Assembly: GCA_035438625.1 (NCBI GenBank)
Contig: DAORIS010000002.1
Coordinates: 34,832-98,831 of the forward strand
Reading direction: 5' to 3'
Source of the DNA: Minisyncoccota bacterium
Lineage (GTDB): Bacteria; Patescibacteriota; Minisyncoccia; Phycocordibacterales; DAORIS01
Length of the DNA: 64,000 bases
Numbering within the stretch: the first letter of the stretch is position 1; every line of letters begins with the position of its first letter. Shown piece by piece: positions 22,371 through 61,580 of the stretch. The notes below the pieces were generated by a model, which saw only the letters and a program-made list of their open reading frames with translations, did not search any database and had not been told where the DNA came from. Made by a program: the position numbers and the translations under genes.

Positions 22371-24821
22371 CTATTCTTCAGTTTCCCCTTCGCTTCCAGT
22401 AGTATCTTCTTCTGTGTCAATAGCTTCCTCTGCCTGAATTGCTCGTGAACCACTTGAAAGTGAACTTGAGAGCGCTTGCACATCTGTGTTTTCAGGGTTT
22501 GTTGTAAGCAAGATGTCTGTAAGCATTCGAGCCTCTTCGTTTCTTCCTAGTTCCCTGTATGTAAGTGCCAAGAAATACTGCGCGTTTGCATACTGAGGAT
22601 TAATGATAAGTGCTCGCTCAAAATCACGTGATGCCCCCTCAAAATCATCTATGTTGTACTTAAGAATTCCAACCTGGAGATGTGCATCAGCATTTGTAGG
22701 AGCAGTGAGTGCACCAACTTCAGCAGCTTCGATTGCCTTTTCTATTGAATTCTCTTGGATGTGGAGCTGTGCCTTGAAGAAATATGCGTCTGTGTAATTT
22801 GCCTTGAGTGCAATTGCTTGGTCAGCATATTCGAATGCCTTAGAGACATTACCGTTATTCCTCTCAAGTTGCGCAAGCGCAAGCTTAATCAATGGATTAG
22901 ATGGGGAAAGCTTCTGTGCTCGATCATACGCAGCGAGTGCTTGATCATATGCACCTTCAACCTTATACGCCGCAAGGACTGAGTATGTGTCTCCTAATGA
23001 CAACCAGTTTACATAACTATCTTCATTAAGTGCAACTGCCCGTGATGCGATACCGGTAACTTGCTGCACAATTGCTTGTCCTTGTTCCTGGAGTGCCTGT
23101 TGTTGGCTCTGGCTAGCGTTTTGAGAACTTGAGACGAATGTTGAAAGCTGTTGCAAACCAACACTGATCAACTCTCGGTAATACGAATCCCTTTCATCGA
23201 ATTGAAGTGCTCGATTATATCGTGATGTTGCTTCTGGAACATTTCCCTGAGCGAGTGCAGTTGAAGCACGATTCACTTCATATCGAGCATACGCTTGTGT
23301 TGTGAAGAGATATCCAAGCATGATGATACCCAAAAGAAGGAGAACAAGTCCTGCAACAGAGGCAAACGCTGCTCGTGGATCAGAGAGGTATGAGTACGCA
23401 CGAGTTCGAACAATTCCCATCGCAAGAGCGACCGTGATAAGAAGCCCGAGAAAGACAAACAAATATGTGTACAGTACTAATCCAGGGTTGCTGAATAGGA
23501 AGATCAAGATGAGATATACGACGCTAAATGAAAGCACTGCACCGTGATTACGCTCATGTTCTTCTCCGACTGTTCCAAGTAATAACCTAAACATAAGGAT
23601 TGCAGCAAACGCAATGAGTGCGATCCACGCCAATAGTCCTGGGATACCGAGAGTTACAAGTGAACTTAAGACTGTGCTAAATCCAAATGAAAAATCTGAG
23701 CTCCAAAGAATTGTGTTGTTGACTTCAATTGGCTTGAATTGGTTCCATGCGACATTAAATTGTCCTGGGCCCACTCCAAACACCTTTCCTTCCTTAATAA
23801 CATTCCAACCAAGTTCAAGTGTTGCAAGTGGAGAAAGCTTTGCTTCAATGTGCGGTGCATTGAAATTATTCAAAAAGCCTAGTCCAGGAACGTTTGACGC
23901 GATTGAGAAGACACTTGCACGTCCTGAAATCAAAATCATTGCAAACGACACAAGCACGATAACAAGCGGAGCTGTTGGTATTTTTGTAATAAAACGAGAC
24001 ACAGGAGTAGCTGTTCCAGGAATCACCTCAGCAGCACGTTCTGCCATTTGCTGATTTGCCTGCCGTGTCATTTTAAGGAATGAGTACACGAAGATAAGAA
24101 CTGCTGAAACACCCACCAACCACCAAACAGTGTTTATGTTAACAACTGAGATAGCAAGAGCTGAAATAACGATCGCAGCCGTTGAGATAACTACCCACAG
24201 ACGCTTTCGCGCTAAGAACTGGTGGTATGCAAGTGAGAGCACAAGCAAGAAGCCCGCAAAGAGTCCGACATCTGGCCATGCACCAAGTGGAGATGAGAGG
24301 AGGTTTCCAAAAATTCCAAAGTTAAGTGTTGCAGGTCCCATCAAGAAACGAATAGTGTGGAAGAGGACAAGAATCGCACCACCGATCCATGTGGCAATAA
24401 ATACCGAGCGAACAGTTCGGAGGGTTGTAAAAAATCGAACTGTAGCAAGAAGGAAAATAAGTCCCGCAAACACATAAGCAGCAGAATCAACCGTTGCAAT
24501 ATCAATAATTGTTGATGCACGGAGCGCAACAAGTGCTGAACTGATTATGGTAATAAGGAACAGTACCACAACTGCAGTTAATACGTGTGTTCGAGGAAAT
24601 TCAAATGAACCGAGCTTAAGATCGCTAATAACAACTGATAATGCGAGAAACAACATCACAAGCAAGACCATGATTGGCTTACTTGCAAATAACATGAACG
24701 TTGAAGGAATAATGAAAAAGGGTAACGCTGCAATTAAAACAAGCAGTGCACCTCGCGAAATAAATGTAAGCATGATGTATAAGTATATAGTACAACCGCT
24801 AAAAAAAGCACAGCTCCCCAT
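22371..24821 (-). CDS. O-antigen-ligase/Wzy-like polytopic membrane domain fused to C-terminal TPR repeats and an acidic tail
   Basis: About 500 aa of TM helices, then repeated TPR-like AxxYxxA(L)xLxP units, ending in EEAIDTEEDTTGSEGETEE. Confidence 0.55.
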   Translation of the reverse strand: MGSCAFFSGCTIYLYIMLTFISRGALLVLIAALPFFIIPSTFMLFASKPIMVLLVMLFLALSVVISDLKLGSFEFPRTHVLTAVVVLFLITIISSALVALRASTIIDIATVDSAAYVFAGLIFLLATVRFFTTLRTVRSVFIATWIGGAILVLFHTIRFLMGPATLNFGIFGNLLSSPLGAWPDVGLFAGFLLVLSLAYHQFLARKRLWVVISTAAIVISALAISVVNINTVWWLVGVSAVLIFVYSFLKMTRQANQQMAERAAEVIPGTATPVSRFITKIPTAPLVIVLVSFAMILISGRASVFSIASNVPGLGFLNNFNAPHIEAKLSPLATLELGWNVIKEGKVFGVGPGQFNVAWNQFKPIEVNNTILWSSDFSFGFSTVLSSLVTLGIPGLLAWIALIAFAAILMFRLLLGTVGEEHERNHGAVLSFSVVYLILIFLFSNPGLVLYTYLFVFLGLLITVALAMGIVRTRAYSYLSDPRAAFASVAGLVLLLLGIIMLGYLFTTQAYARYEVNRASTALAQGNVPEATSRYNRALQFDERDSYYRELISVGLQQLSTFVSSSQNASQSQQQALQEQGQAIVQQVTGIASRAVALNEDSYVNWLSLGDTYSVLAAYKVEGAYDQALAAYDRAQKLSPSNPLIKLALAQLERNNGNVSKAFEYADQAIALKANYTDAYFFKAQLHIQENSIEKAIEAAEVGALTAPTNADAHLQVGILKYNIDDFEGASRDFERALIINPQYANAQYFLALTYRELGRNEEARMLTDILLTTNPENTDVQALSSSLSSGSRAIQAEEAIDTEEDTTGSEGETEE

Positions 24822-24835
24822 GTGGAGAGCTGTGG
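24801..24835 (-). terminator. Intrinsic terminator of rnpB
   Basis: On the minus strand, CACAGCUCUCCACAUGGGGAGCUGUG followed by UUUUUUU. Confidence 0.7.
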
Positions 24836-25203
24836 TGCACTGTAAGCCGAATTCTGTTCTAAGAGGTATTGCTACGTACTTAGAGATATATATATGTCTG
24901 GAGAATAGATCGCTCTATCCTTCTTGCGTCTCTCTATGCTCTTGCGCCTCGTACGAGACGTCGCAAGAACACAGCACGGACTTGCACTCAGGCAAGGATT
25001 TAGCCGTTTCATTCCCTTATTCAGTATTAGGGATTCACCCACAAGTGGGTGCCTCTGGCTTTCACCTCGGGCGTCACTGCTCGCACCTCGCGGATTACTC
25101 CGTGCAGGGGTTACCTGCTGCCTTTCTCCAGGCGGACCTGGGAGTGTTCGGACTTTCCTCACGATGTAGAAAATCTATATCGCGCATATACCCGTGCACA
25201 TAT
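24836..25203 (-). ncRNA. rnpB: RNase P RNA (bacterial type A-like)
   Basis: The minus strand carries the P4 signatures AGGAAAGUCCG (5' strand) and ACAGAAUUCGGCUUA (3' strand) about 300 nt apart. The region is GC-rich with no credible ORF, and a GUGCAC P1 pairing closes the ends. A terminator follows. Confidence 0.75.
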
Positions 25204-25230
25204 ATATCATGACACAAAAAAGAACTTTAT

Positions 25231-26982
25231 TCAATACTTACGGTGTACCCTCTTTTTTGGTGCTAATGGGAGTGCCCCGCCGGCAACAATCATTGATCCG
25301 ATGATAATCATGAGGTACATAAGAGCCATGTCTCGTGGTGTTCGTGTTTGTCCAAAGGCAGCGAAAGTGGAAGCGCCAGCACCTGAGCGGATAAGATTAT
25401 CTTCTAAGAAATCTTCTGTTTCAGCGATCCAGGGAAAAGTCTCCCAGGGAAGCAGGCCGTTTGGAGTCCATCCACTGTCCCAAATAACAATACCATCCAC
25501 ATTAAGCGCTTTTAACGTATCAAGTTGTAGTCGATAAAAATCAAGTGGTAACTGTTGTAGCGCCAATCCTCCCGCTGTCGATTCATGATACCTTGGCCAA
25601 ATAAATGGATACACCGGTTTACCATATCGCTCTGCAATAGCAACTGTATACTCGGCGTAATACAACCAATCTTGTTGACTATTGTTTGACGTATATAGAG
25701 ATGGAAAAATATAATCTACCGCATTTGCAATTGGTGCAAGAAAATCACTTGCAGCAACAACCGCTTCGTACGCTGCAGTAAATTGTGCAGCTTGAGAAAC
25801 CGCCCACGCATCACCATCTTGGAGTAATCCATAGTTAACAGCGTGCGTAAGCTCTGACAAAGGGATAATAGAGTAAATACCGACCTTTAAATCAGGTCGC
25901 TCGTCTCGTATCCACCCAATAACTCGCAAATATTTTTCTGTTGAACTTGCTACAGCCACCTCACTATGAAAGTTAATGTTTGCAGGCCAACTTTCGATAT
26001 CAGGAACAGCTACAGCATTTAACGGGACTGTTTGTGCCCACGCACGAGTTGCAACTTCACTTGGCTCACCCGGGTTAGTTGCAGACGCATTATCAAAGAA
26101 ATATCCTCCCCAACCTACATAAATCGGATTTACTGCTGCACTAAAGATTGTTGGTTTATCGGTATACCCACCTATCGCATCAAATATTTTAAATATAGTG
26201 TTGTAAACAGGATCTGGAGGAGCATTGTCGTTTGAATTATTTCGACCTCCACCACCTCCACCTCCACTCCTTCTACGCTTAACTGTAGTTGTCGCCGTAG
26301 AATTTGTTCCCGTGTTTTTTGCAAGCGTTTGATTAACTAAAGTTGCATAGGCAAGATTTAATGCCGATCTTGTTTGTGGTCCAATTGATCCAACTGGTTC
26401 AAGTCCTTTCGATAGCTGAAAACTTGCTACCGCCTGAGCGGTGATAGGGCCAAAAAATCCTGTTGGCGGTTCAGTCATAAAACCAAGCGCAACAAGCAAT
26501 TCCTGAAGAGCCGTTACCTCAGCACCCCGAGCTCCAATTGTTTGTGGAAGAGTAAATGTAAATGAAGGAATTATTGTTGTGCTGGTTGTAGCTGGACTAG
26601 TAGGAAGAACATTCTGTGGTGCTCCACACACAAACAATCTAGTTAGAGGACCAAAAAATCCAGTTGCAGGAGTTATATTGACTGCCATTTGAAAATTTTT
26701 CAAAGCTTGCTGGGTCTTAAGTCCAAACGATGTAGTCTCTTGTCCAGGAGAACCGAGACCGGTTTGAGAAATGACATAGCCGTTGGCATTTAAGAATTGT
26801 TGGAGTGCGCGGACATCTTCACCTTCTGAATCAACCCTTAAATCACGAGTATAGATACAGGTTGTGTTTGTTTGAGCATTACTTTCTTTGAAAATAAATG
26901 CATCGTGCGTTAGCGATAGCCCAAAAATCAATCCGCTAATAGTTACATAACACACCAATCTCAAAAACTTAAAATTATTCAT
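25231..26982 (-). CDS. Secreted protein with two peptidoglycan-binding (PG_binding_1-like) domains, a Gly-rich linker, a TIM-barrel-like glycoside-hydrolase domain and a C-terminal TM anchor
   Basis: Signal peptide. Two copies of the VRALQQFLNANGY...GLKTQQALKNFQ-type PG-binding repeat. A GGGGGGGR linker. A C-terminal domain of about 300 aa with a VDGIVIWDSGW box. The final hydrophobic segment is followed by KKRVHRKY. Confidence 0.5.
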   Translation of the reverse strand: MNNFKFLRLVCYVTISGLIFGLSLTHDAFIFKESNAQTNTTCIYTRDLRVDSEGEDVRALQQFLNANGYVISQTGLGSPGQETTSFGLKTQQALKNFQMAVNITPATGFFGPLTRLFVCGAPQNVLPTSPATTSTTIIPSFTFTLPQTIGARGAEVTALQELLVALGFMTEPPTGFFGPITAQAVASFQLSKGLEPVGSIGPQTRSALNLAYATLVNQTLAKNTGTNSTATTTVKRRRSGGGGGGGRNNSNDNAPPDPVYNTIFKIFDAIGGYTDKPTIFSAAVNPIYVGWGGYFFDNASATNPGEPSEVATRAWAQTVPLNAVAVPDIESWPANINFHSEVAVASSTEKYLRVIGWIRDERPDLKVGIYSIIPLSELTHAVNYGLLQDGDAWAVSQAAQFTAAYEAVVAASDFLAPIANAVDYIFPSLYTSNNSQQDWLYYAEYTVAIAERYGKPVYPFIWPRYHESTAGGLALQQLPLDFYRLQLDTLKALNVDGIVIWDSGWTPNGLLPWETFPWIAETEDFLEDNLIRSGAGASTFAAFGQTRTPRDMALMYLMIIIGSMIVAGGALPLAPKKRVHRKY

Positions 26983-29900
26983 TTGTTTCTTCTGCTACTG
27001 ACTGATTTTCTGCCTCTCCTGAGTCATTGCTTTGTGGAGACCTATTTGAGTCTACTTGCACCTCTTCAGTTATTTCTGTTGATACTTCTATAGATTCAAG
27101 TATATCCTCTTTTTCAACGTGCGATCCACCCACAACCTGTTCTTCACTGATGGGATCAATTGGGAGTGGAATTGGAGTAGGTGCCGGACCTGGATCGTCT
27201 ATTGGTTTAGCCCCACACTCTAATTCAGTCGTTGTCATTTTTCCATTTTTAATCTTCACACAATATGGCTCTCCTGTTACTTCATCGTATAACGTAATAC
27301 CTGTTGGGTTTTCTTGAGAGCCCACAGTAAACGTCTCGACAACTAATTTCTTTAAGGAAGTGAGGGTGTTCGCCATAAAACTTTCATATGAAATCGTTTC
27401 TAGTTGCTCATTGATTGTCTTAACTTTCAGGTCTAATTCTTGGATAGAGTTAATAATAAATGGAGTGAGATTTCCATACGCAACTGATTTATATCCAGTT
27501 TTTGAATCAGTTGAGACAAGCTCTGGGAATATCTTTTCTACTTCTTGAGCAATCAATCCAAACCGCTTTGTATCATCAGACTGAGAATTCCATTGGAATG
27601 AAACCGGGCGAAGTGCTGTGATACGTTCAAGTGATGTTAGTGGATCAATTGAAGCCACGTCTTTCTTTAATCGTTCGTCGGAAGTACATGTCCACGTTGT
27701 TGATGTTGGGTTGATTTCACAATACCCGTTTGTATCTTCAAATCGAACGGGAGCATCATCACTTGAAACATATACATGAAGTTTCTTTGCAGGAGAGGTT
27801 GTACCGATTCCTAGGGAACCAGCTGCAGTTATATTTAAGAGAGTATTCGAGGAACTATCTTGAATTTGAAAAAGATCAGCACTTTGTGCCGCAACACCTC
27901 TGATTATAATACCAATTCTACTATTCGTACTTGGAACAAATGTAACATTCCCAACTCCATTTCGAATATTTCCTCGTAGATCTGCATCTGGGCTAACAAC
28001 AAATGAAGTACCACTAACAAGAAAACTATACGCAGACCCGGTATTGATGTTGGTATTAAAAAACAAAGTTCCACTACTTCTTATGTCGTTGGTAATCAAC
28101 CTAGTATTTGCAGTAACTATGTCACCACTAATATTACCTCCTACAGTAAGAAGCGAGCCTGGTGTCGTAGTGCCAATTCCAACGTTCCCACTAACAATCA
28201 GTCCATTACTTGGCGCAGCGGTTACACCACCATATGTACCAATAGACACCCCTCCAACAACATCCAATGCTGACTTAGGAAAACCGGTCTTGAGACCGAG
28301 ACGAATGTCCATTCGATCGTTGTCGTTTACCCATAACACTGACCCAGTACTCGTCGATGAAGCACCGTATGGAAACATATGAATATACTGACCACTTGCA
28401 ATCGTTGTACCATTTCCATATCCTGTACCCAAAATACGGTTTGCGGTTCCATTTACAGCAACCTGAAGCCCGTATCCAGTATCAATTGCAATATCTCCTT
28501 GTAACACATTGAATCGAGAAGGATAAGTACCTCTGCTGGTAGTTCCAACTGCAACACGCACATCTCCCGCCACAGTATCGCTACCTGAGATTGTAATACC
28601 TCTACTAGTTGCACTTGTTCCACCCGGAACGACCAATGTTGCATACCAACCGTATGGAATAATTGTTCCGTCACCATATCCTGCCGTAAGATTCGTGCCT
28701 GTCACGGTACCCCCGAATGATCCGCTACTTGAAACCGTTAATGCTCCAGTTTGTGAAACGGTAAGTAAAGAGGTGCCTGTTGATGACGCAACCACTAACG
28801 GATTAGAGCCCGCTGATCCAACAATTGACAGCTTGGCGATTGGCGAAGTAGAACCAATACCGACGTTTCCTACAGAAGTTATTCTTAATTTTTCTCCTAT
28901 GGTATTTGAACCCCTTGTAGAAAAGGCCAGGTAAGAATCATTAGTTGATGCAGCTTCCCAAGCACCAGTCACCAGTCCAGTAGTAAAATTACTTCCTGCT
29001 GACCAACCGTAAAAACCAAGTGATGATCCTACGTTTGCTGCCGCTACCGCATTATTAGTTATTCCTAGTGCAGGTGCAATACCTGAGGAAGTTGTAGCTA
29101 TTGTTAAAGTAAATTGTGGAGAAGTTGTTCCAATCCCGACATTACCACTACTTCCTTGGAATCTCAGATACGGTGTACCACCCACTGTTGTTACAAAATC
29201 AACATTTCCACCTGTTGATCCATTACGTCCAGTAAAAAATTCAATATTTCCTGAATTGGTTGTTACATCCTGAGAAAATTTAATGTGAGCATTGTAGTAA
29301 GAGTTTTGAGCATAAAATTTTATAAACGATGAACTGTTATATGTAGGCTGTCCAAATCGGATATTTCCATTGTAAATATCAAATTTTTCCGCTGGAGTCG
29401 TTGTGCCAATTCCAATACTTCCGGACGCATTAATTACCGTAAGTGCCGTGCCAGCAGAATTTTGCCATTCTTGTAAAGTAGAACTTTGATTTGAAGCACC
29501 ACGAATAATTAATCCTTTAGTTGTGCTTGCTGTTGCTGTTACATGAAGTTGTGCCAATGGACTTGAGTTACCGATACCAACTAATCCTGAACGATCAATT
29601 ATTAACCGAGTAGTTGGGTTATATGTTGAGCCTGGCGTTAGTTCAGAATCAGTTCGTAGCTGTACATATCCATTATTAAAAAATAAATCTGATGCATATG
29701 TTGCTCGAGCAACAAATCCTGAAGAGTTATACTCTCCACCTTGCATTACAAGACCAATAGAATCACCTCCTGCACCAAGAAACATTCCCCCTCCCAAAGT
29801 GTTCGAACCATTGAAAAAACGAACACTGGTATAGCCTCCACCATCCACAGTAAGTGTATGTGTTGGTGTGTTAGTCCCCACCCCAACATTTCCACTCGCC

Positions 29901-30586
29901 CTCCAGACATCAGTTCCATTCGATGCCCAGTTTCCAACGGCAGCACCAGCTAGGAGGTTTCCTGCCCAGTACAAATTACCCCCATCGTTATAGAGAGAGT
30001 TTGAGGTATCAGAAGGGGGAGTAATTTCCGCAAGGACAACATACTGTGCCAAAGAGAGTAGCCCTGCAATTGATGAAGTAGCGGTGTCCGTAACTGAAAG
30101 CGCACGAGAGAAGTCAATGGCACCTATGTCATCTTGAAGGTCTGAGATGTCCCCATTGACATCACTGAACCGATCAGCCATATCTTCACGAAATGAATCG
30201 ATGCGCTTGTTCACACGATCAAGAGAGACATTCGGTTGAGCTCGGAGGAGTTCTCTCATACGAACATCGATTTGAGCAATCACTTCTTCACGGGTGATCC
30301 CTGGTACTGTCACTTCACGGATGGTTTGGACAGTGTGGGTATCATAGACATATTCTGTTGATCCCTGAGGATACACAATGATAGGGGCAGTTTGTGGAGT
30401 TGCAACGTATGCAAAAGACGACGGCCCTTTCATTTCACATGAACCGAGGGTGGTGCAGTATATTCCACCAATATAATTTCCAAATGAAAATGCACGTAAT
30501 TTTTCAACCGGAACCGCAGAAAGGAAGATAGTTGATACAGCTATTAATCCAAAGAAAAAAGCCGTAATTCGGAAGTACGATTTCAC
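26975..30586 (-). CDS. Giant (1203 aa) secreted tail-fibre-like surface protein with a C-terminal intramolecular-chaperone autoproteolytic domain (Peptidase_S74-like)
   Basis: Signal peptide. Seven dispersed G-N-V-G-I-G-T-x-x-P repeats (GNVGVGTNTP, GLVGIGNSSP, GSIGIGTTTP, GNVGIGTTSP, GNVGIGSTSP, GNVGIGTTTP, GSLGIGTTSP). A C-terminal SDERLKKDV...GLIAQEVEKIFPELV...YGNLTPFIINSIQEL block matches the self-cleaving chaperone of phage tail spikes and fibres. Confidence 0.6.
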   Translation of the reverse strand: MKSYFRITAFFFGLIAVSTIFLSAVPVEKLRAFSFGNYIGGIYCTTLGSCEMKGPSSFAYVATPQTAPIIVYPQGSTEYVYDTHTVQTIREVTVPGITREEVIAQIDVRMRELLRAQPNVSLDRVNKRIDSFREDMADRFSDVNGDISDLQDDIGAIDFSRALSVTDTATSSIAGLLSLAQYVVLAEITPPSDTSNSLYNDGGNLYWAGNLLAGAAVGNWASNGTDVWRASGNVGVGTNTPTHTLTVDGGGYTSVRFFNGSNTLGGGMFLGAGGDSIGLVMQGGEYNSSGFVARATYASDLFFNNGYVQLRTDSELTPGSTYNPTTRLIIDRSGLVGIGNSSPLAQLHVTATASTTKGLIIRGASNQSSTLQEWQNSAGTALTVINASGSIGIGTTTPAEKFDIYNGNIRFGQPTYNSSSFIKFYAQNSYYNAHIKFSQDVTTNSGNIEFFTGRNGSTGGNVDFVTTVGGTPYLRFQGSSGNVGIGTTSPQFTLTIATTSSGIAPALGITNNAVAAANVGSSLGFYGWSAGSNFTTGLVTGAWEAASTNDSYLAFSTRGSNTIGEKLRITSVGNVGIGSTSPIAKLSIVGSAGSNPLVVASSTGTSLLTVSQTGALTVSSSGSFGGTVTGTNLTAGYGDGTIIPYGWYATLVVPGGTSATSRGITISGSDTVAGDVRVAVGTTSRGTYPSRFNVLQGDIAIDTGYGLQVAVNGTANRILGTGYGNGTTIASGQYIHMFPYGASSTSTGSVLWVNDNDRMDIRLGLKTGFPKSALDVVGGVSIGTYGGVTAAPSNGLIVSGNVGIGTTTPGSLLTVGGNISGDIVTANTRLITNDIRSSGTLFFNTNINTGSAYSFLVSGTSFVVSPDADLRGNIRNGVGNVTFVPSTNSRIGIIIRGVAAQSADLFQIQDSSSNTLLNITAAGSLGIGTTSPAKKLHVYVSSDDAPVRFEDTNGYCEINPTSTTWTCTSDERLKKDVASIDPLTSLERITALRPVSFQWNSQSDDTKRFGLIAQEVEKIFPELVSTDSKTGYKSVAYGNLTPFIINSIQELDLKVKTINEQLETISYESFMANTLTSLKKLVVETFTVGSQENPTGITLYDEVTGEPYCVKIKNGKMTTTELECGAKPIDDPGPAPTPIPLPIDPISEEQVVGGSHVEKEDILESIEVSTEITEEVQVDSNRSPQSNDSGEAENQSVAEETNE

Positions 30587-34563: not shown

Positions 34564-34592
34564 TTGACAATACTAGTCATATATGCTATAAT
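34564..34592 (+). promoter_or_regulatory. Perfect consensus sigma-70 promoter (TTGACA-17 nt-TATAAT)
   Basis: Exact match to both hexamers with optimal spacing. GGAG lies 7 nt before the ATG at 34687. Confidence 0.7.
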
Positions 34593-34686
34593 ATACATAA
34601 TCCTACGTAAAGGCATAAGTTTGCCTATACAGGTACGGGATACGGAGTTGGTACGCATGATGTGTATCAAACAAATGGAGTTCGTT

Positions 34687-35340
34687 ATGATCCGTCGTTC
34701 TTTGTCACTGTTTGCAGTTACCTTCGCTTTGATCGTTTGCGTAAGTCAGGTGGCTTCTGCGGCATTTGTGAATCAGTCGTACCATCTGCCCAGCATCGGC
34801 CACATCTACACATGGGGTGAAAACCATTCAACCAGTGAAACCACCCTCAGTCTCGACCTTCAATCTCCGGAATACGAGGTGCGAAGTACGGGATCAAGTG
34901 TGCAGTTTACCAATGATGGACAAGGGTACGTATTCCTGTCAATCGGCGCAATCAAGCGCGATTCGGGAGTTCGTAACCTCTCCAACATGAACTCGAACAG
35001 CAATGTTGTCTTTGATGACGTGGTGCTTTACAGCTACGCATCAACCGGCCACTACCTCGACGAGCACACCGGCGCCAAGATGAGCACCGGAAACGCATTC
35101 ATTGAAATGTCGCCGTTCATTGCCACCTGGTCTGATTTTCAGCTCAGTTCGCACTACGATGACGTTGACGCTGCACGCTATCTCTGGCTCAGTCTCTCGG
35201 CCCGTATCGAGTACATCGGTACGAACCCAGACACCATCGCAATGCTCGACGGTTTCAGCACCATGAGCATGGTGCCCGAACCGAGCTCGCTCGGCCTTCT
35301 CGGCGGCATGGTGATTTCCACCTTACGTCGTAAGCGCTGA
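34687..35340 (+). CDS. PEP-CTERM sorting-domain surface protein
   Basis: Signal peptide (MIRRSLSLFAVTFALIVCVSQVASA). C-terminal VPEP, a hydrophobic helix (SSLGLLGGMVIS) and RRKR. The gene is clearly more GC-rich than the surrounding DNA. Confidence 0.6.
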   Translation: MIRRSLSLFAVTFALIVCVSQVASAAFVNQSYHLPSIGHIYTWGENHSTSETTLSLDLQSPEYEVRSTGSSVQFTNDGQGYVFLSIGAIKRDSGVRNLSNMNSNSNVVFDDVVLYSYASTGHYLDEHTGAKMSTGNAFIEMSPFIATWSDFQLSSHYDDVDAARYLWLSLSARIEYIGTNPDTIAMLDGFSTMSMVPEPSSLGLLGGMVISTLRRKR

Positions 35341-45230: not shown

Positions 45231-47504
45231 TTATTGCTTTGGAATAATACTTTTTGTTCCGGCGTTAATTGCGCCTTCATATGAAGTAATTTCTTGAACG
45301 ATCTGGGTGTTACCCGCTGTTGCTGCTTGAGTCTTAAGTTCAGCCAAAAGTTCGAGTGCGCCCTTTCTGTTACCAACCTCAAGTCGTGCCGCAGCAAGAA
45401 GAATGTGAGATGTTGGAGAAATCCTCTCTTGTTTCTTCAGTTCTGCAACCTGTGCTTCAAGTACCGGAAGTACTCGTGCTGTGTGTCCTGTTATAAGAAG
45501 TGCTTGTACTACTCCACTGTTTTCCATGACTTGTGGGTATTTTTCAATAGTATCGAAGGCGAGTTGATCTCTATTGCTATAAAGCGCTGTAACTACATAC
45601 AACCCTTCAATAGAAATATTTTTCTCTTGAACACTGACTGCATACTCAGCTCGCTTAAATGCTTCTTCAAATTTATCCTGGGTAAGCAAGAAAGATATTT
45701 CATCAGAGATAAACATCTGCTTCTTTGGAGACAATTCCTGTGCTTTTCGGATTAATTCCATTGCCTTATCAATTTCTCCTGTCCTTGAGTAACTTGTTGA
45801 AAGAATGTAGTACGCACGTGGATCATTTGGAGACTCTTCAATTTGATCCTGACCCGCCAAACGAGAGTCATTCAAGAAAGCCATTCCAACTTCATTTCCA
45901 GCACCAGCTTGCGAAGCAACATTTACAGCATTTGTAATGTATTGCTCTCGAATTTCTTGGTTTCCAAACGAATCATATGAAAGCGCCTTATCGAAATACA
46001 TTTTGGTGGCTTCGAAATTTGCCATTTGCTCTGCCTGGGTCTTGGGCGGCTGGGCCATAATGCGTAGCGCAGAGAGAAGTGACCTATTTGCTGCATACGG
46101 CTTATATGTACCGGCGTATAACGTATACGGAACAACAACAAGTGAAAGTACTGCGCATACAAGCATGACTTGCGTCTTGAGTACTGAATCACCTGCTTCT
46201 GCGTTTCCCTTTTTAGAAACAACATCTCGAGGAACAATTTGTGAATGGAAGAATGCAAGTATTCCAAAGAACAAAATATAACTTGCCAAGTTATCAAACA
46301 CGAACAAGTTATGGATAAAGTAACCAACGAGTATTCCAGTGAATACTGATTTCTGTAGAATTGAGAGGCGATCGCCTGGTATTTTCCAGAGCGTGTACCC
46401 AAGCATTGCAATTAGTGCGATATAGGCCAAGAAACCAACAATTCCTGTTGTGACCAACCACTCGATAAACATATTATGTGAGCGGTCAAACCATTGTTCG
46501 TGAGAATAAATTGCAGGATCGTAGTAGGTAGAAAAGATATAGTTAAAACTTTCCTGTCCCCAACCAAAGATTGGTCGATCCTTTACTCCCTCAAATGCCA
46601 TTTTCCATAGTGTTGGACGGGCCTGAGTTTCAGCGTTTGTGAGTGTTACCTCTGTAAATCTCCTAAGAATTGAAACGTTCTGCACAACGCCCGTATCCTT
46701 TAACAAGAAAAACAATCCGACAAGTGCAGTGACGCCAATAACCATTCCAGCTGCAATTTTCTTCAAGAGCGGATGATTACGTTCATAGATTGCGAGAAAA
46801 ATTCCAGCAACAAACGAGCCACCTAATATACCAAGTACTGTTCCTCGAGTACCGGTAAAGAATACACCTGCAATAAACGCAATGATTCCAACAGCATAGG
46901 CTGCAATACGCCATTTTTCTTGTCGTACTTTTTTATCAGACACTGCAATCAGTAACAATATGCCAGCGTGAATGAAAAAGTATGCACCAACATATGTTGA
47001 GTTTCCGAGCATAACATTAATACGTGGGGCAACACCATTACTTAGAAGTCCTCCAATTGCGTCAGACAATCCAACTAAGAGCATGATTGCGCTTATTGAA
47101 AGCGATGTAACCGCATACCACAACCACTCTTTTGTTGTACGAAAAACATTTGAAGCGATGAATGCAAAGGCACCGAGGTGCAAGAGTGCAATGTACCCTT
47201 CCATTCGCTCATAGTTACTCCAGAAACTCTTATATGGATTTTCACTAAAGATATTTGCAACACCTACAATCACCACAAAAACCAAAAGTGACCACATAAG
47301 ACCAGACGCCTTTGGCCTAAAACGTGCGTCCCTCCACGCAAGAAACAAATATGCCACCAATGCAATTTCTACAAGCGCCCTAAATGCAAAGTTTTTTCCA
47401 GCGATATATGGGAAAAACATTTCATTTGAAACATATAGCGGTACTGCCAGCACCAGTCCCAAACAGCCGATAACAATATATTGTAGTGTTTTATTCAAAT
47501 TCAT
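45231..47504 (-). CDS. Second O-antigen-ligase/Wzy-like membrane domain fused to TPR repeats (paralogue of 22371-24821)
   Basis: Same architecture as the first copy: polytopic N-terminus, then about 300 aa of TPR-like repeats. Confidence 0.55.
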   Translation of the reverse strand: MNLNKTLQYIVIGCLGLVLAVPLYVSNEMFFPYIAGKNFAFRALVEIALVAYLFLAWRDARFRPKASGLMWSLLVFVVIVGVANIFSENPYKSFWSNYERMEGYIALLHLGAFAFIASNVFRTTKEWLWYAVTSLSISAIMLLVGLSDAIGGLLSNGVAPRINVMLGNSTYVGAYFFIHAGILLLIAVSDKKVRQEKWRIAAYAVGIIAFIAGVFFTGTRGTVLGILGGSFVAGIFLAIYERNHPLLKKIAAGMVIGVTALVGLFFLLKDTGVVQNVSILRRFTEVTLTNAETQARPTLWKMAFEGVKDRPIFGWGQESFNYIFSTYYDPAIYSHEQWFDRSHNMFIEWLVTTGIVGFLAYIALIAMLGYTLWKIPGDRLSILQKSVFTGILVGYFIHNLFVFDNLASYILFFGILAFFHSQIVPRDVVSKKGNAEAGDSVLKTQVMLVCAVLSLVVVPYTLYAGTYKPYAANRSLLSALRIMAQPPKTQAEQMANFEATKMYFDKALSYDSFGNQEIREQYITNAVNVASQAGAGNEVGMAFLNDSRLAGQDQIEESPNDPRAYYILSTSYSRTGEIDKAMELIRKAQELSPKKQMFISDEISFLLTQDKFEEAFKRAEYAVSVQEKNISIEGLYVVTALYSNRDQLAFDTIEKYPQVMENSGVVQALLITGHTARVLPVLEAQVAELKKQERISPTSHILLAAARLEVGNRKGALELLAELKTQAATAGNTQIVQEITSYEGAINAGTKSIIPKQ

Positions 47505-47521
47505 GGGCTACACTATACAGT

Positions 47522-48670
47522 ATGGATCAAAAAAGGAGGAGGAAGATTCTCTTTGTTATCACCAAGTCTAACTTTGGGGGTGCACAACGATATGTATTCG
47601 AATTAGCCACAGAGCTTCACCAACAAAAGTCAGAGGAATTTGAGATTTGTGTTGCTTTTGGAGGCTCTGGGTTACTCAAGGAAAAGCTGGGGGTAGCTGG
47701 TATTGGGACAATTGAGATTAAAGGATTAGAGCGTGACATTGGAATTTTTAAAGACCTCAAAGCATTTTTCTCACTGCTATCAATCTTAAGAAAAGAACGA
47801 CCCGACATCATTCACTTGAATAGTTCTAAAGCTGGGTTACTTGGCGTACTCGCTGGACGTATCGCACGTATTCAGAAAATAGTATTCACGGGACATGGTT
47901 GGGCATTCAACCAAAAGCGCTCGTGGATAATGAGCACAATCCTTAAGGCTTGTTACGTTGTAATCATCTCCCTCTGCCACAAAGTGATTGCAGTTTCCCA
48001 AAAAACAAAAGAGGATGTACTCCAGTTACCGTTCATTAATGAACAAAAAATTATTGTGATCCATAACGGCATTCCACAGCAAGAATTATTATCAAAAGAA
48101 ACGGCTCGAGAAAAACTACTTTCACATACACCTGGACATGTGCCCACCTCCCCAGAAACACTATGGATTGGCACACTTGCAGAACTCCACCCGAGAAAAG
48201 GATTAGATATACTTATCAATTCTCTTACGAATGTTTCTCGTCCATTTCACGCATGGATTATCGGTGCAGGAGAAAGCAAAGATTCACTTATTGAATTGGC
48301 GACTACCACTCGGCTCCAAGATAAAGTTTCTTTCACAGGTTTTATTTCTAATGCGTCAGCGCTATTACCTGCCTTCGACATATTTATTCTGCCTTCACGA
48401 GACGAGGCACTCCCATACGTGTTATTAGAGGCTGGTGCCGCGTCCCTTCCAACTATCGCAACAGCAATTGCTGGAGTGCCTGAAATCATTGAACACAATA
48501 AGACAGGTATACTTATTCCACCAGAGAACATCGGTGAACTTACTCGAGCAATTGATGCGCTATGTACTAACCCAGAACGTTCTCAATTTGGTATGAATTT
48601 ACGAACTACAATCCTAGAAAGATTTTCTCTTACTGGCATGGTAGAAAGAACTATCAAAGATGCATACTAA
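47522..48670 (+). CDS. Glycosyltransferase family 4 (group 1)
   Basis: GT-B fold with the E...LPSR..EA.P..LLEAGA..LP C-terminal signature. Start set at MDQKRRRKILFV to avoid an overlap. Confidence 0.7.
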   Translation: MDQKRRRKILFVITKSNFGGAQRYVFELATELHQQKSEEFEICVAFGGSGLLKEKLGVAGIGTIEIKGLERDIGIFKDLKAFFSLLSILRKERPDIIHLNSSKAGLLGVLAGRIARIQKIVFTGHGWAFNQKRSWIMSTILKACYVVIISLCHKVIAVSQKTKEDVLQLPFINEQKIIVIHNGIPQQELLSKETAREKLLSHTPGHVPTSPETLWIGTLAELHPRKGLDILINSLTNVSRPFHAWIIGAGESKDSLIELATTTRLQDKVSFTGFISNASALLPAFDIFILPSRDEALPYVLLEAGAASLPTIATAIAGVPEIIEHNKTGILIPPENIGELTRAIDALCTNPERSQFGMNLRTTILERFSLTGMVERTIKDAY

Positions 48671-49967
48671 AACCCAGAGACTCCAGACCTTCCTGGGAAG
48701 TGCTGGTTTTAAGAAATACTTTAATAACACCTCGTGGTTATTTATTGGTCGCCTGACAAACATGGTAGTTGGCTTTATTGCCACAACATATGTCATCCGA
48801 ACACTCGGACCAGAGTCATATGGAACGGTTAGTTATATCCTTAGTTTCGCTGGCCTTGGATCAGTATTGGCAAACTTAGGAATAGATCAGATTTTGTCTC
48901 GTGAATTATTAGTACAGAAAGAAAATCGTGGAACATTGTTAGGCACAGCGTTTATTATAAAAACAACCGGTGCTGTTGTCTCGACACTACTCTTAATTAC
49001 CACCAGCATCGCGATCGACAACAGCGCGTTCTTGACGCTTTTGATTGCATTTATGTCGTTTTCATATTTCTTTTCTGCGTTCGGTGTCTTTAATACACTA
49101 TTTCAAGTTGATGTTCGTTCTAAATATCCATCGCTCCTTTCGATATGGGTCGTGTTGATTTTGAGTGTCCTTAAAATTATTGTTGTCTTCTCAGGTCTGC
49201 CAATTGAGTTTATTATCGGGGTGTTCTTCATCGAACCAATTCTCTATGCCGTTGGACTAGTCTTTCTATATGTAAAACACTACAGCAGGCATATCTACAA
49301 ACTAAGTTTTGATATGAATATTGCAAAAATATTCATCAAAGAATCATGGCCACTAATTTTATCGAGTGCCTTTATCGTCATCTACTCACGCATAGATCAA
49401 GTGATGCTTAAAAACATGGTAAATGAAACATCTGTAGGATTTTATGATTCTGCTGTTCGTATTGCAGAACTGTGGTATTTCATTCCTGGAATTTTAGGAT
49501 CAGCACTGTTTCCTGCAATGGTTAATGCCCACCTAACAGACACATCTATATATACCCTTAGGATGAAACGCCTATATTTCCTACTCTGGTGGCTTGGAAT
49601 TGCGATTAGCGCCTCAGTATTTGTCTTAGCGCCATTTATCATTCACACACTCTATGGACCAGCATACGATATGTCGATATTAGTCCTTAGGATTTATGTG
49701 TGTGCAACCATACCAATATTCCTCGCAATGATTATCCAGCAACACCTTGTCACAAAAGGATTGACACGAGTAACATTTTTCATGACATTCCTTGGAATGG
49801 TTGCGAACATTGTTTTGAACATTTTCTTAATTCCTCGCTACGGAATATACGGTGCTGCAGTCGCAACCCTTGTTTCATATTCACTCATGCCGCTGTCGAT
49901 ATTGCTACTGAAATCAACCCGCGAACACGCGCTCCTTGTGCTAACATCTATTTCACATTTCCGTTAA
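48660..49967 (+). CDS. Wzx-type polysaccharide flippase (MOP superfamily)
   Basis: 12-14 TM helices, about 435 aa, located within the glycan cluster. Confidence 0.65.
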   Translation: MHTKTQRLQTFLGSAGFKKYFNNTSWLFIGRLTNMVVGFIATTYVIRTLGPESYGTVSYILSFAGLGSVLANLGIDQILSRELLVQKENRGTLLGTAFIIKTTGAVVSTLLLITTSIAIDNSAFLTLLIAFMSFSYFFSAFGVFNTLFQVDVRSKYPSLLSIWVVLILSVLKIIVVFSGLPIEFIIGVFFIEPILYAVGLVFLYVKHYSRHIYKLSFDMNIAKIFIKESWPLILSSAFIVIYSRIDQVMLKNMVNETSVGFYDSAVRIAELWYFIPGILGSALFPAMVNAHLTDTSIYTLRMKRLYFLLWWLGIAISASVFVLAPFIIHTLYGPAYDMSILVLRIYVCATIPIFLAMIIQQHLVTKGLTRVTFFMTFLGMVANIVLNIFLIPRYGIYGAAVATLVSYSLMPLSILLLKSTREHALLVLTSISHFR

Positions 49968-49989
49968 TTAATGGATTAACCAAAACACT

Positions 49990-50715
49990 ATGGAAAACGT
50001 TTCTTGTTCAATCATCACTTCCCTCTACAAGACAGACGAGCATATTGAAAATTACGAGCGACATATTCAAAAATGTGCAAAAAAACTACTGAAAGACAAC
50101 GTCTCGTTTGAAGTGATCGCAATAACAAACGACGCAACGGAACTTGAAACTGCAGTATGTGAGCGACTACAAGCAAACCCATGGTTTAGATGGATCGATG
50201 TGCCAAGAGAAACACTTTATGCAACTTGGAATAGGGGTGTCCGAGAATCAAAGGGATTTGCATGTACGTTTTGGAATGTAGATGATATTCGAACAAGCGA
50301 AGGAATCGTTGATGGAATAGAGCGAGTAAAAAGCGGTGCACCAGTTGTGTACTTCCCGTTTACATACAAGCGATATGTAAAAGTTGGACCATTTAAACTC
50401 TTGGCGAAGATAAAGAAAATTGATTTGCCTGCATTTTCAAAAGAAACATTTACCAAACACATGAACTGCGGACCGTTCTTTATGTTTTCTAAGGACTTTT
50501 ATTCAAAAGTTGGTCCGTTCGATGAGTGGTTTACGATCGCTGGAGATTTTGAATGGTGTACAAAAGCAGCACACATGGCAGTGTTTCAAAAATCAGAAAT
50601 TATCGGCGGAACATTTACGAGCGACGGACAAACTCTTTCTGGAAAAAGGAGCGAGCGACTCACGAAAGAAAACGAAAAAGTTGCCGAAAATATTAAAGTT
50701 CGGAACGGTAATTAA
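49990..50715 (+). CDS. Glycosyltransferase family 2-like
   Basis: N-terminal CSIITSLYK (GT2 SIIxPxYN-like box), DxD-type acidic residues, 241 aa. Confidence 0.5.
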   Translation: MENVSCSIITSLYKTDEHIENYERHIQKCAKKLLKDNVSFEVIAITNDATELETAVCERLQANPWFRWIDVPRETLYATWNRGVRESKGFACTFWNVDDIRTSEGIVDGIERVKSGAPVVYFPFTYKRYVKVGPFKLLAKIKKIDLPAFSKETFTKHMNCGPFFMFSKDFYSKVGPFDEWFTIAGDFEWCTKAAHMAVFQKSEIIGGTFTSDGQTLSGKRSERLTKENEKVAENIKVRNGN

Positions 50716-50718
50716 TGC

Positions 50719-51669
50719 ATGAAAATAATTGCAGTTACACCAGCACGAAACGAAGCTAGGCTCTTACCTTCATTTCTTACATTCTTGTCCTCTTTTGCTG
50801 ACTATATAATTATTGCCGATCAAGAATCGACAGATGGAAGCACTGAAATATACAAGCAGTTCCCAAAAGTATCAGTCATACAAAACCATCGCCCGTCACA
50901 CTCAAATGAAGTGAGGTGGGATCTGCTTACCAAAGCTCGAGAAATTGAAGGAGAAAACATTATTGTTTGCCTTGATGTCGACGAACGGATTCCGGCACAT
51001 TCTGTTCCATTAATTATTGATCACCTTAAACAGAAGGGGTCAGGCTTTAACGTTTCACTTCCCTGGATACAGTTATGGAAAAAACCAGAGGTGTACCGAA
51101 CTGACTGGCCGTGGGGAAATAACTACAAAGCGTGCATATTTTATGATGACCGAATCATGTCGTATGAACAATCTGTTGTGATCAATGATCACACCAATCG
51201 CATCCCAACCATTACTGCTGAAAAAAATACCATACTACCCTCACCACTTCTTCATCTTCAATACCTTTATTGGAACGAAGTGCAGCTTAAACAAGCGTGG
51301 TACAGGTGCAAGGAATACATTGCTGATCCCACAAAAATAAAGGCTATTAATTTAAAGTATGAATCCTCTCTAGACACTTCCCGAACAAAATTATCAGCAA
51401 CACCCCCCGAGTGGATTGATGAGAAGTCTTTCATTCCCACAAACATTGTAGAGACCACAAATCCGTGGCACCTACAAGAACTGCACGAAATGTTTAAGAC
51501 ACATTCCATTGCATACTTTGAGCCAATAGATATGTGGCACATTCAGACACTACAACAAGAATTTCAAACACAAGTTGGAAGAAAGCCTCACCCTACAAGA
51601 TATAACTCAATACTCCGTACACTGTATTATATTCTTCAATCCATCCGACAAAACCTTAAACACCAATGA
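50719..51669 (+). CDS. Glycosyltransferase family 2-like (GT-A fold)
   Basis: IIAVTPARNEARLL N-terminal box and downstream DVDE. Confidence 0.55.
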   Translation: MKIIAVTPARNEARLLPSFLTFLSSFADYIIIADQESTDGSTEIYKQFPKVSVIQNHRPSHSNEVRWDLLTKAREIEGENIIVCLDVDERIPAHSVPLIIDHLKQKGSGFNVSLPWIQLWKKPEVYRTDWPWGNNYKACIFYDDRIMSYEQSVVINDHTNRIPTITAEKNTILPSPLLHLQYLYWNEVQLKQAWYRCKEYIADPTKIKAINLKYESSLDTSRTKLSATPPEWIDEKSFIPTNIVETTNPWHLQELHEMFKTHSIAYFEPIDMWHIQTLQQEFQTQVGRKPHPTRYNSILRTLYYILQSIRQNLKHQ

Positions 51670-52532
51670 ACACCTGCATCATCACATCCGCATCCAATAA
51701 ATTCTTTCCATCGGTTCTGAATTTAATTGGTTCTATAAAAACAAATCACTCTCCAGTGATTCGGATTTTTGTATACGACCTAGGACTATCAAAAATCTTT
51801 AGAAAAGAACTTGAAACGATTGAAGGCGTGACAGTTATTACCCTTCCACCGTTTGTATCGTTCTGGCGTAGCTGCTACACATGGAAGTCCTACATTTTCT
51901 GCAATCCATTTGCAGAATTAAACTTCTATCTTGATGCTGGTACTCAAGTACTCCGCAGTCTCGATGAGATTTTTTCTATAATAAATAAGGATGGGTACAT
52001 TGCTGTCTCACAAGGTGTGTCGAATAAGGAGATCATCCCCGTCGATTACATTGAGACATTCAAGGCAGATCCTGCGATTTTAAATGAATCCTCTGTTACT
52101 GCTGGAGTGTTTGGATTTAAAAAAGACGGCTCTGTTTCGAACCAATTATCCTCAATGCACGAAGCATCAAAACAAGGATATTGCCTTGGTTTTTCAAAAG
52201 GTGACCAATGGAGAAACAAAGGAGTTAACAAAACAGACATTGTTCGATCCTGCGAAAAATTTAGACACGACACCACCCTGCTTAATATCTTCCTCAGAAA
52301 AGACAATCCAAATTTCTACGCACATGACGGTACTAAATATGCAGGCTGGAACACTCCACAGGACCATCCAAATCAACTTATTTGGAACATGCGTATGAAT
52401 TACACCCATTTACAGTATCTCCCTATTCGATACACACATAAAAAATTTTCACTCCTTGCAATTGTAAACCGAACCATCATTTATGTGTTTATATTGCTTA
52501 AACGTATGCGGTTAGTGATTAAAGGAAAATAA
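51666..52532 (+). CDS. Hypothetical protein, possibly a nucleotide-diphospho-sugar transferase-like enzyme
   Basis: Soluble, alpha/beta-looking protein embedded in a GT operon. No firm motif. Confidence 0.35.
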   Translation: MNTCIITSASNKFFPSVLNLIGSIKTNHSPVIRIFVYDLGLSKIFRKELETIEGVTVITLPPFVSFWRSCYTWKSYIFCNPFAELNFYLDAGTQVLRSLDEIFSIINKDGYIAVSQGVSNKEIIPVDYIETFKADPAILNESSVTAGVFGFKKDGSVSNQLSSMHEASKQGYCLGFSKGDQWRNKGVNKTDIVRSCEKFRHDTTLLNIFLRKDNPNFYAHDGTKYAGWNTPQDHPNQLIWNMRMNYTHLQYLPIRYTHKKFSLLAIVNRTIIYVFILLKRMRLVIKGK

Positions 52533-53356: not shown

Positions 53357-53747
53357 CTTTAAACACTACGATTTTTGCACCGATAAAGTTAGTGATTGTA
53401 GATACTCCAATTGCGCACACATTTGCCAACAGCACATTCATAGTAAAAACCTCTACCAGTAGACGAAGTGTAAGTAGACTCAACACAAGCGAGAATAGAC
53501 AGACTGCTGCATACAACATAAATTCTTTTCTTTTTCGATATCCACCTGACTCAAAAGACACCCTTCGGTTCAATTCATAGCTAATGAAGATGCCGACAAT
53601 GAATCCGATTGCACTCGAGAGAAGGTACTGAACGTTTGCAGTACGTAATAGAACGAAAAATATAGAATAGTTACAGATAGTGCTAATGACCCCGACAACA
53701 GCAAAATTTCGAAATTGTATTGCTGTTTTTCGATTAAATACATCCAT
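53340..53747 (-). CDS. GtrA-family small membrane protein
   Basis: 135 aa, four TM helices, N-terminal FxxVGxxxTxxN-like GtrA box. Confidence 0.65.
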   Translation of the reverse strand: MDVFNRKTAIQFRNFAVVGVISTICNYSIFFVLLRTANVQYLLSSAIGFIVGIFISYELNRRVSFESGGYRKRKEFMLYAAVCLFSLVLSLLTLRLLVEVFTMNVLLANVCAIGVSTITNFIGAKIVVFKAKEVF

Positions 53748-53822
53748 AGAGGTCTACGTGGCTGAAAGTATACCATTTGCATAAATATGCTACGATACCG
53801 TCTACAAACAACGGGACACTAT

Positions 53823-54419: not shown

Positions 54420-54420
54420 T

Positions 54421-55179: not shown

Positions 55180-55180
55180 C

Positions 55181-57668: not shown

Positions 57669-57669
57669 C

Positions 57670-58371: not shown

Positions 58372-58412
58372 AAAAAAGCCGACGTACATTGTACACCGGC
58401 ACACTTCAGAAC
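58372..58412. terminator. Bidirectional intrinsic terminator
   Basis: A-run, then GCCGacGTACAttGTACAccGGC hairpin between convergent genes. Confidence 0.5.
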
Positions 58413-58428
58413 GAGACCGTTCAATCTT

Positions 58429-60292: not shown

Positions 60293-60308
60293 CCTCTACA
60301 GCGAACCT

Positions 60309-61562: not shown

Positions 61563-61580
61563 ATTATAATTCGTACATTC

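Follow-up and report, generated by a model that had tools for sequence, protein, structure and literature searches.

A putatively membrane-anchored, peptidoglycan-binding protein with a distant GH56-type barrel, encoded beside a tail-fibre-like gene in a Paceibacterota genome

We report the analysis of a gene at 25231..26982, on the minus strand of a 64,000-nucleotide stretch of contig DAORIS010000002.1 (the whole of this stretch is referred to here as the window), which encodes, from an ATG start, a 583-amino-acid envelope protein combining peptidoglycan-binding modules with a distant hyaluronidase-type barrel. Upstream of this hydrolase gene, and on the same strand, lies an open reading frame (ORF) of 1203 amino acids with a GTG start, at 26975..30586, whose product resembles a phage tail fibre. 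The two genes overlap by 8 nt (26975-26982), as an initial annotation of this DNA had noted and as the ORFs bear out; the sequence there, ATGAATAA, includes the TAA stop codon of the fibre gene, and the hydrolase gene starts 8 nt before that stop. In NCBI the two products are named HRH26058.1, 'peptidoglycan-binding domain-containing protein' (583 aa), and HRH26059.1, 'tail fiber domain-containing protein' (1203 aa), and both come from a metagenome-assembled genome of Candidatus Paceibacterota, within the Candidate Phyla Radiation (CPR; Patescibacteria). Both exact proteins, in identical gene order, are found on two assemblies, a 113-kb JGI contig and a 12.9-kb Logan contig, the source samples being JGI 3300014059 and SRR1145916.

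The hydropathy profile of the 583-residue protein has exactly two hydrophobic segments, one at each end (all coordinates given for this protein refer to the minus strand). The first, residues 4-25 (FKFLRLVCYVTISGLIFGLSLT; 26908..26973), reaches a Kyte-Doolittle maximum of 1.87, is modelled by AlphaFold as a helix over residues 2-19, carries K5 and R8 as basic residues, and is a signal peptide or signal anchor. It is followed by two PG_binding_1 modules (Pfam PF01471), which together score 88.5 bits (E 3.3e-25) in two stretches against a cut-off of 23 and confirm the tandem repeats of the initial annotation. Module 1 spans residues ~48-117 (26632..26841) and module 2 residues ~149-208 (26359..26538); in the second, the best Pfam stretch, residues 152-208, covers profile positions 1-57 of 57, and there are further matches to the N-terminal region of SleB (NCBIfam) and to endolysin families of PHROG. 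Both modules align to the peptidoglycan-binding module of P0134, a protein discussed below, module 1 with an E-value of 3e-8.

A low-complexity linker rich in Thr, Asn and Arg (~residues 209-261) then leads to the catalytic domain (~residues 262-531; 25390..26199). The poly-glycine stretch that had been pointed out in this linker is a run of seven glycines, residues 240-246 (26245..26265), modelled with a predicted local distance difference test score (pLDDT) below 50. The second hydrophobic segment, residues 551-575 (DMALMYLMIIIGSMIVAGGALPLAP; 25258..25332), has a Kyte-Doolittle maximum of 2.18, is predicted as a helix over residues 549-566, lies only ~20 residues from the barrel, and recurs in P0134. 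It is followed by the basic tail KKRVHRKY (residues 576-583; 25234..25257), proposed here to be cytoplasmic, and the last 12 residues (PLAPKKRVHRKY) hold five K/R, in keeping with the transmembrane helix and basic tail of the initial annotation. An NCBIfam scan at E<=0.1 found no PEP-CTERM, LPXTG or other sorting-signal model on the protein.

The catalytic domain, of ~270 residues, receives no Pfam assignment above threshold; a word-indexed search through 5.8 billion proteins gave just 15 relatives, all of them devoid of Pfam domains, and a direct phmmer search of the domain against the sequences of the PDB gave no match. A profile built from 16 family sequences, by contrast with the single sequence, matches bee-venom hyaluronidase (1FCQ), a member of glycoside hydrolase family 56 (GH56), with an E-value of 9.8e-9, and a 60-sequence profile additionally matches human HYAL1 (2PE4) and the wasp enzyme Ves v 2 (2ATM) at E 2e-3 to 6e-3. 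When 161 family members are compared with insect GH56 by hhalign, with a contiguous bee sequence obtained by joining one fragment to the 1FCQ stretch, the probability is 97.7-98.7% (E 2e-12 to 2e-15). The Pfam model PF01630 (Glyco_hydro_56) is itself found at E<=1e-3 in 22 of 60 sampled members, the best at 1.4e-10.

Structure prediction leads to the same family. AlphaFold models of the domain form a (beta/alpha) barrel, with a pLDDT of 80 for the domain alone and of 96-98 over most of the barrel (~311-500) with a deeper alignment. Searched with Foldseek against the PDB, the predicted models place all five GH56 entries at ranks 1-5 (E 1e-9 to 5e-8), with TM-scores normalised to the target of 0.40-0.51, the next fold being a GH5 mannanase at E 2e-5. 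All of the solved structures matched by the domain are eukaryotic. We assign the catalytic domain to a TIM barrel of hyaluronidase type, distantly related to GH56. The glycoside-hydrolase-like domain of the initial annotation is thereby upheld, with a hydrolase fold and a conserved D-x-E motif, while the folds guessed for it (GH18, GH25 and GH114) give way in the structural comparison to the GH56 barrel. Matches to the SGNH esterases 6NJC and 7PZG (E 3e-4) cover 75 residues, a single helix-strand unit, find no support in the fold search and are regarded as local similarity. A profile of the N-terminal half retrieved no GH56 entry, with MltA and muskelin at chance level (E ~1).

The active-site motifs of GH56 hyaluronidases (the bee enzyme Hya/Api m 2, 1FCQ/1FCV, human HYAL1 and Ves v 2) occur in the window protein on the same barrel fold and in the same strand order: D-x-E-x-W, G-x-Y, P-S-x-Y, Y/F-x-W and I-W-G. 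The predicted catalytic motif is D328-I-E330 (25993..26001), within 'VPDIESWP', which we propose to match the GH56 'IDFESW'; we take the catalytic pair of the bee enzyme to be D111/E113 in the published numbering. By hidden Markov model (HMM) and hhalign alignment, Y370 of G-I-Y (25873..25875) corresponds to the second Tyr of 'WGYYAYP', S428-L-Y430 in 'FPSLYT' (25693..25701) to 'LPSVY', and W501 in 'VIWDS' (25480..25482) to 'IIWGS', the G-x-Y, P-S-x-Y and I-W-G motifs aligning residue for residue with those of the bee enzyme. W462 completes the set of motif residues (D328, E330, Y370, S428, Y430, W462 and W501) carried by the window protein.

These positions are strongly conserved among the 161 members. 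The D/N-I-E-x-W column holds D in 140 and N in 20, with the Glu present in 159 and the Trp in 147; the Tyr of G-x-Y is found in 148, the Ser and Tyr of P-S-L-Y-T in 148 and 160, respectively, and the Trp of I-W-G in 158. For the D-x-E motif itself, the isolated beta3 segment of GH56, 'GVGVIDFESW', has 'vvlDIEhW' as its single best hhalign match (E 0.0036), and all seven of the weak local HMM matches that were inspected over this segment fall on D328-x-E330 (E 0.015-6). The motif follows a predicted strand, residues 324-328, as would be expected of a barrel active site. In an hhalign comparison of the N-terminal half with a six-sequence alignment of GH56 fragments the D-x-E is mis-registered (probability 1.4%), because GH56 has ~30 extra residues between the two strands. 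The Asn that replaces the first acidic residue in 20 of the 161 members, P0134 ('INIEHW') included, stands beside a near-invariant Glu and may mark a mechanistic sub-type; a change of Asp to Asn is tolerated in other substrate-assisted families that cleave at N-acetylhexosamine (HexNAc).

The GH56 hyaluronidases are thus the best matches of the domain in both sequence-profile and structure searches, yet share only ~13-16% identity with it. The segment from D-x-E to G-x-Y is ~30 residues shorter in the window protein, which also lacks the EGF-like tail and the Arg that follows the motif Trp. It differs further in being bacterial and in being fused to peptidoglycan-binding modules and a transmembrane anchor, and hyaluronan is an unlikely substrate. 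A tether at the C-terminus has a counterpart in the animal enzymes PH-20 and HYAL2, which are held by a glycosylphosphatidylinositol anchor.

The bacterial family to which the domain belongs is large. Searched exhaustively with a profile, 1.84 billion cluster representatives yielded 2,765 members at E<=1e-3, each standing for a cluster at 50% identity, 917 of them at E<=1e-30. When every GTDB species was represented by a single genome (185,579 genomes), 97 confirmed loci were obtained, of which the best 80 were considered; the hosts include many Nitrospira, Planctomycetota, Gammaproteobacteria, Geminicoccaceae and others, and none of these 80 loci is from the Patescibacteria, which suggests an older acquisition of the catalytic domain. 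Most members (116 of 161) are secreted, stand-alone, single-domain proteins of ~280 aa; others have Ig-like, PA14, malectin or fn3 domains joined to the barrel, and one has Wzy_C.

Bacterial GH56-like genes usually lie in exopolysaccharide (EPS) biosynthesis clusters in Nitrospira, Planctomycetota and Proteobacteria. Among 114 flanking proteins at 30 loci the commonest were GT4/group-1 glycosyltransferases (14), followed by GT2 enzymes (5), exosortase EpsH (4), DUF3485 (4) and Wzx-type flippases (4), and Poly_export and UDP-GlcNAc 2-epimerase also occur. At loci within the series L003-L082, for example L006, L020, L026 and L035 of Nitrospira, stand-alone GH56-like genes sit in same-strand arrays with EPS genes, and an EPS-cluster hydrolase of hyaluronidase-like type looks widespread in Nitrospira and Planctomycetota. 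Members from EPS clusters also occur in cultured bacteria such as Steroidobacter agaridevorans, Rubellimicrobium rubrum and Geminicoccus (L062, L065 and L070). The literature that we searched contained no biochemically characterised bacterial member; it treats GH56 as the family of mammalian and venom hyaluronidases, or just counts matches in genomes, as where GH56 is reported in the CAZyme annotation of bacterial genomes such as Acidobacteria UBA6911 (bioRxiv 10.1101/2021.04.09.439258).

Against this background the wall-binding and C-terminally anchored layout is very rare on a GH56-like barrel. Of the 161 family proteins whose catalytic domain is complete, just two carry PG_binding_1, the window protein and P0134, from which we suggest that this lineage has been re-targeted. 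P0134 (L083:4426-6132, 568 aa) starts with an N-terminal signal, carries PG_binding_1 and ends in a hydrophobic helix and basic tail; a 'PR' directly ahead of that helix is shared with the window protein. In the catalytic domain the two proteins are 36-41% identical. The gene for P0134 sits between one for a DinB-type polymerase and prfB, with no fibre gene beside it. A metagenome scan for closer orthologues of the window protein returned only relatives of the catalytic domain, at <=38% identity.

The fibre encoded upstream (26975..30586, minus strand) is an N-terminally anchored protein whose single hydrophobic segment covers residues 4-30. It matches tail-fibre families of PHROG at up to E 1.8e-25 and has a Peptidase_S74 domain, an intramolecular chaperone, at residues 969-1024 (E 4e-17). 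Ahead of this domain, in residues 389-810, there are four copies of a repeat of the GxxGIGTTSP type, 'G[NS][VI]GIG[TS]T[TS]P', at 389, 481, 573 and 800, spaced by ~92 residues and then by 227; ~180 residues with an acidic tail come after it. The C-terminal part of the fibre would be released if S74 cleaves itself as it does in phage fibres. Homologues of the fibre number 267 at E<=1e-20, and among the 120 listed those that are named are mostly from Patescibacteria; the protein belongs to a type of surface fibre that is common in the CPR.

The pairing of fibre and hydrolase is not conserved. None of four fibre homologues in other genomes has a peptidoglycan-binding or hydrolase neighbour, and the best homologue (identity 40%, query coverage 23%), on a 72-kb JGI contig (3300045996; L097), lies in the order TPR membrane protein-MurJ-fibre-LepA, which is partly syntenic with the fibre-hydrolase-rnpB-TPR-MurJ-LepA of the window and has no hydrolase. 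It seems that TPR-MurJ-LepA forms a conserved block, around which the position of fibre genes varies. Most likely the 8-nt overlap reflects the co-expression of two surface proteins and not a conserved two-part machine.

Downstream of the hydrolase gene, and beginning 30 nt past its stop codon, is the gene for RNase P RNA, rnpB (24827..25200, minus strand), which matches Rfam RF00010 with 103 bits (E 2e-30), barely over the 100-bit threshold, and is of bacterial class A. The ORFs listed across it on both strands, at 24547-25537, are probably spurious. The one strong hairpin of terminator type in this region, an 11-bp stem followed by a T-run at 24834-24809 (-), coincides with the 3' end of rnpB, and the terminator scan found no such hairpin ahead of that end. 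Given this and the 8-nt overlap, co-transcription of fibre and hydrolase is likely, as the initial annotation had proposed from the overlap, and the fibre is a probable operon partner of the hydrolase; fibre, hydrolase and rnpB may all share one transcript.

The surroundings are those of a chromosomal housekeeping locus, with an FAD oxidoreductase gene, gatB and obg upstream and, beyond rnpB, the genes for a TPR membrane protein, murJ and lepA downstream. The GC content of the hydrolase gene (0.428, and 0.284 at third codon positions) is inside the range of its neighbours, and the base composition of the fibre-hydrolase pair is like that of neighbouring genes, so that neither context nor composition supports a prophage origin or a recent horizontal transfer. 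The locus bears no sign of a prophage, and these neighbours of the pair are neither holins nor phage structural genes. With the catalytic domain as query, tblastn returned nothing from 50,697 phage records, and among viral structures (BFVD) there were only generic TIM barrels, with TM-scores of 0.3-0.4. The endolysin-like layout that had been suggested for the protein therefore holds for its peptidoglycan-binding part, where PHROG matches cover residues 128-235, but does not extend to the catalytic domain, which has no phage relatives. With the chromosomal context and the unconserved pairing, this also speaks against the idea, put forward in the initial annotation, of a phage adsorption and lysis pair repurposed as a surface complex.

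The window holds further envelope genes, among them murJ, murB, pgeF and a Wzx/Wzy-type glycan cluster. This last, a surface-polysaccharide biosynthesis cluster at 45231-62444, is 18 kb from the hydrolase gene and contains genes for a Wzy_C and TPR protein (45231-47504), a GT4 enzyme (47486-48670), a Wzx/MurJ-like flippase (48660-49967) and a further group-1 glycosyltransferase (60309-61562), together with two GT2 genes and one methyltransferase gene; it could make the substrate of the hydrolase. An ORF of 288 aa within the cluster (51666-52532, +) has no Pfam match and ends in a hydrophobic segment with a basic tail ('...IIYVFILLKRMRLVIKGK'); it is possibly another tail-anchored protein. Some 8 kb from the hydrolase, an ORF of 258 aa (34564-35340, +) that ends '...MVPEPSSLGLLGGMVISTLRRKR' scores 18.3 bits against the NCBIfam PEP-CTERM model (threshold 16), which is unexpected in a Paceibacterota genome. 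The proteins scanned in the window, itself only part of the genome, included no exosortase or sortase.

Taking these observations together, we consider the protein to be a membrane-tethered, wall-docked, retaining endo-beta-N-acetylhexosaminidase that acts on an envelope glycan of its own cell, a reading to which we give a probability of about 0.7. The protein would be exported by way of its N-terminal signal, and the C-terminal helix would hold it in the membrane of its own cell, leaving the basic tail on the cytoplasmic side and the GH56-type (beta/alpha) barrel ~20 residues outside. The flexible linker of ~50 residues, with its Gly7 run, would join the barrel to the two PG_binding_1 modules, which are expected to dock onto peptidoglycan. 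By homology with the GH56 hyaluronidases the barrel would be a retaining enzyme using substrate-assisted catalysis, in which E330 may serve as the acid/base, D328 may orient the 2-acetamido group of the substrate, and Y370, S428/Y430 and W501 may hold that group. The polymer cut would be a beta-linked, GlcNAc- or GalNAc-containing one of the envelope; the likeliest targets in cis would be the glycan of peptidoglycan (GlcNAc-beta-1,4-MurNAc) or a HexNAc polysaccharide that is either exported or attached to the wall. Since the catalytic domain lies so close to the membrane anchor of the cell that makes it, a layout that P0134 also keeps, action on that cell's own envelope is favoured. The peptidoglycan-binding modules point to peptidoglycan as the substrate, and the usual genomic context of the family to a HexNAc exopolysaccharide.

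Several points weigh against this account. Activity and substrate are extrapolated, by analogy, from eukaryotic GH56 enzymes, and the proposed equivalence of D-x-E draws on weak alignments and on the order of strands in a predicted model. The window protein itself falls under the PF01630 threshold (12.2 bits against 23.2; E 0.084). The 'ESWRP' of GH56 reads 'E-x-W-P' in the bacterial family, and the Arg that is absent contributes to uronate binding in GH56, so the sugar at +1 may differ. Elsewhere the family is found in exopolysaccharide clusters and not in peptidoglycan contexts, which favours a substrate other than peptidoglycan. Catalytic mechanism and substrate are inferred, as are signal-peptide cleavage and membrane orientation.

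The alternative that survives best differs from the preferred reading in the substrate only: the enzyme would process an exopolysaccharide or capsule, trimming or releasing a HexNAc polysaccharide made by the cell itself, much as the hydrolases PslG, PelA, PgaB and BcsZ do from their EPS loci, and the PG_binding_1 modules would merely park it at the wall. The neighbours of the family, dominated by GT4, GT2, EpsH/DUF3485, Wzx, Poly_export and UDP-GlcNAc 2-epimerase, argue for it, as do the member fused to Wzy_C and the presence in the window of both the Wzy_C/TPR, GT4, Wzx-like and GT2 cluster (45-62 kb) and the PEP-CTERM protein. We nevertheless hold it to be a possible but doubtful explanation, since the hydrolase gene stands among housekeeping genes 18 kb from that cluster, and PG_binding_1, which only two of the 161 family proteins possess, is typical of enzymes that act on peptidoglycan.

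A second alternative concerns the anchor. The polar motif, hydrophobic helix and basic cluster at the C-terminus have the shape of known C-terminal sorting signals, and the end of the protein might be removed by an exosortase-, rhombosortase- or sortase-like enzyme to give a wall-attached or released product. The 'PR' ahead of the helix, shared with P0134, and the genuine PEP-CTERM protein 8 kb away fit such a scheme; the conservation of 'PR' is, however, drawn from two sequences only, no sorting-domain model matches at E<=0.1, and the scanned window proteins include no exosortase or sortase, and we judge this processing to be improbable.

Two further alternatives give the fibre a part in the function of the hydrolase. 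Enzymes of the FlgJ or VirB1 type open the wall for flagella and secretion systems, and the hydrolase could likewise cut the cell's own peptidoglycan to let the co-translated, 1203-aa trimeric fibre pass. The gene overlap with no terminator before the end of rnpB, the fact that both products are membrane-anchored surface proteins, and the fit of GH56 chemistry, which cleaves after HexNAc, with an N-acetylglucosaminidase would all agree with this role. It is made distinctly unlikely, and somewhat more so than removal of the C-terminus, by P0134, which has no fibre neighbour, by the four fibre homologues, none of which has the hydrolase, even at the TPR-MurJ-fibre-LepA locus, and by the disparity between fibre homologues in their hundreds and a hydrolase layout found twice. 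Alternatively, the pair might be a weapon or an aid to adhesion directed at a host, the fibre binding the host and the hydrolase digesting its wall or capsule at the site of contact, along the lines of the initial annotation, which had pictured another cell's wall as the target. A host-attached life is thought to be led by many CPR bacteria, to which the Paceibacterota belong, the fibre has the look of a phage receptor-binding fibre, and GH56 enzymes degrade capsule-like glycosaminoglycans; but the C-terminal anchor would hold the catalytic domain near the membrane of its producer, phage relatives and phage context are both absent, the pairing is not conserved and the presumed episymbiont has no known host, which leaves this the less credible of the two. 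That the barrel is a non-catalytic, glycan-binding lectin, as the missing Arg of 'ESWRP' and the existence of inactive GH56 paralogues in animals might suggest, is very improbable, as all of the predicted catalytic and acetamido-holding residues are kept and are strongly conserved throughout the family.

In its architecture the proposed membrane-tethered hexosaminidase can be compared with the spore cortex-lytic enzyme SleB and with modular endolysins of the phiKZ type, which have the same wall-targeting module N-terminal to a catalytic domain. Their catalytic folds (lytic transglycosylase, amidase or lysozyme) are unrelated, and, unlike these enzymes, the window protein appears to be membrane-anchored and is chromosomal, outside any lysis cassette. 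The GH73 N-acetylglucosaminidases FlgJ and AtlA are possible functional analogues with a different fold and mechanism, and our searches found no sequence or structural similarity to them. Cleavage of the GH73 type, after GlcNAc in the wall glycan, sometimes lets a surface organelle through (PMC4752226). The boldest form of the argument would make the window protein and P0134 the first GH56-type enzymes directed at peptidoglycan, a new class of bacterial wall N-acetylglucosaminidases that arose when an ultra-small CPR bacterium took up a hyaluronidase-like barrel from an EPS cluster and joined it to wall-binding modules and a membrane anchor. Such an enzyme could open the cell's own wall for the co-expressed fibre, or a host's wall or capsule where the two cells touch, and the thousands of bacterial relatives would form a prokaryotic sister group of the animal hyaluronidases. 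We regard this proposal, taken as a whole, as unlikely.

What is new here is a rare domain fusion inside a large bacterial sister family of the animal hyaluronidases. For the protein itself the result is a well-supported upgrade of the NCBI annotation, 'peptidoglycan-binding domain-containing protein', with a mechanism that we infer. If the enzyme is active, it would make envelope remodelling tractable to study in organisms beyond culture, could extend the wall or capsule hydrolases by a new catalytic class, and would bear on the origin of the animal hyaluronidases; cleavage of peptidoglycan, if true, would raise its interest substantially.

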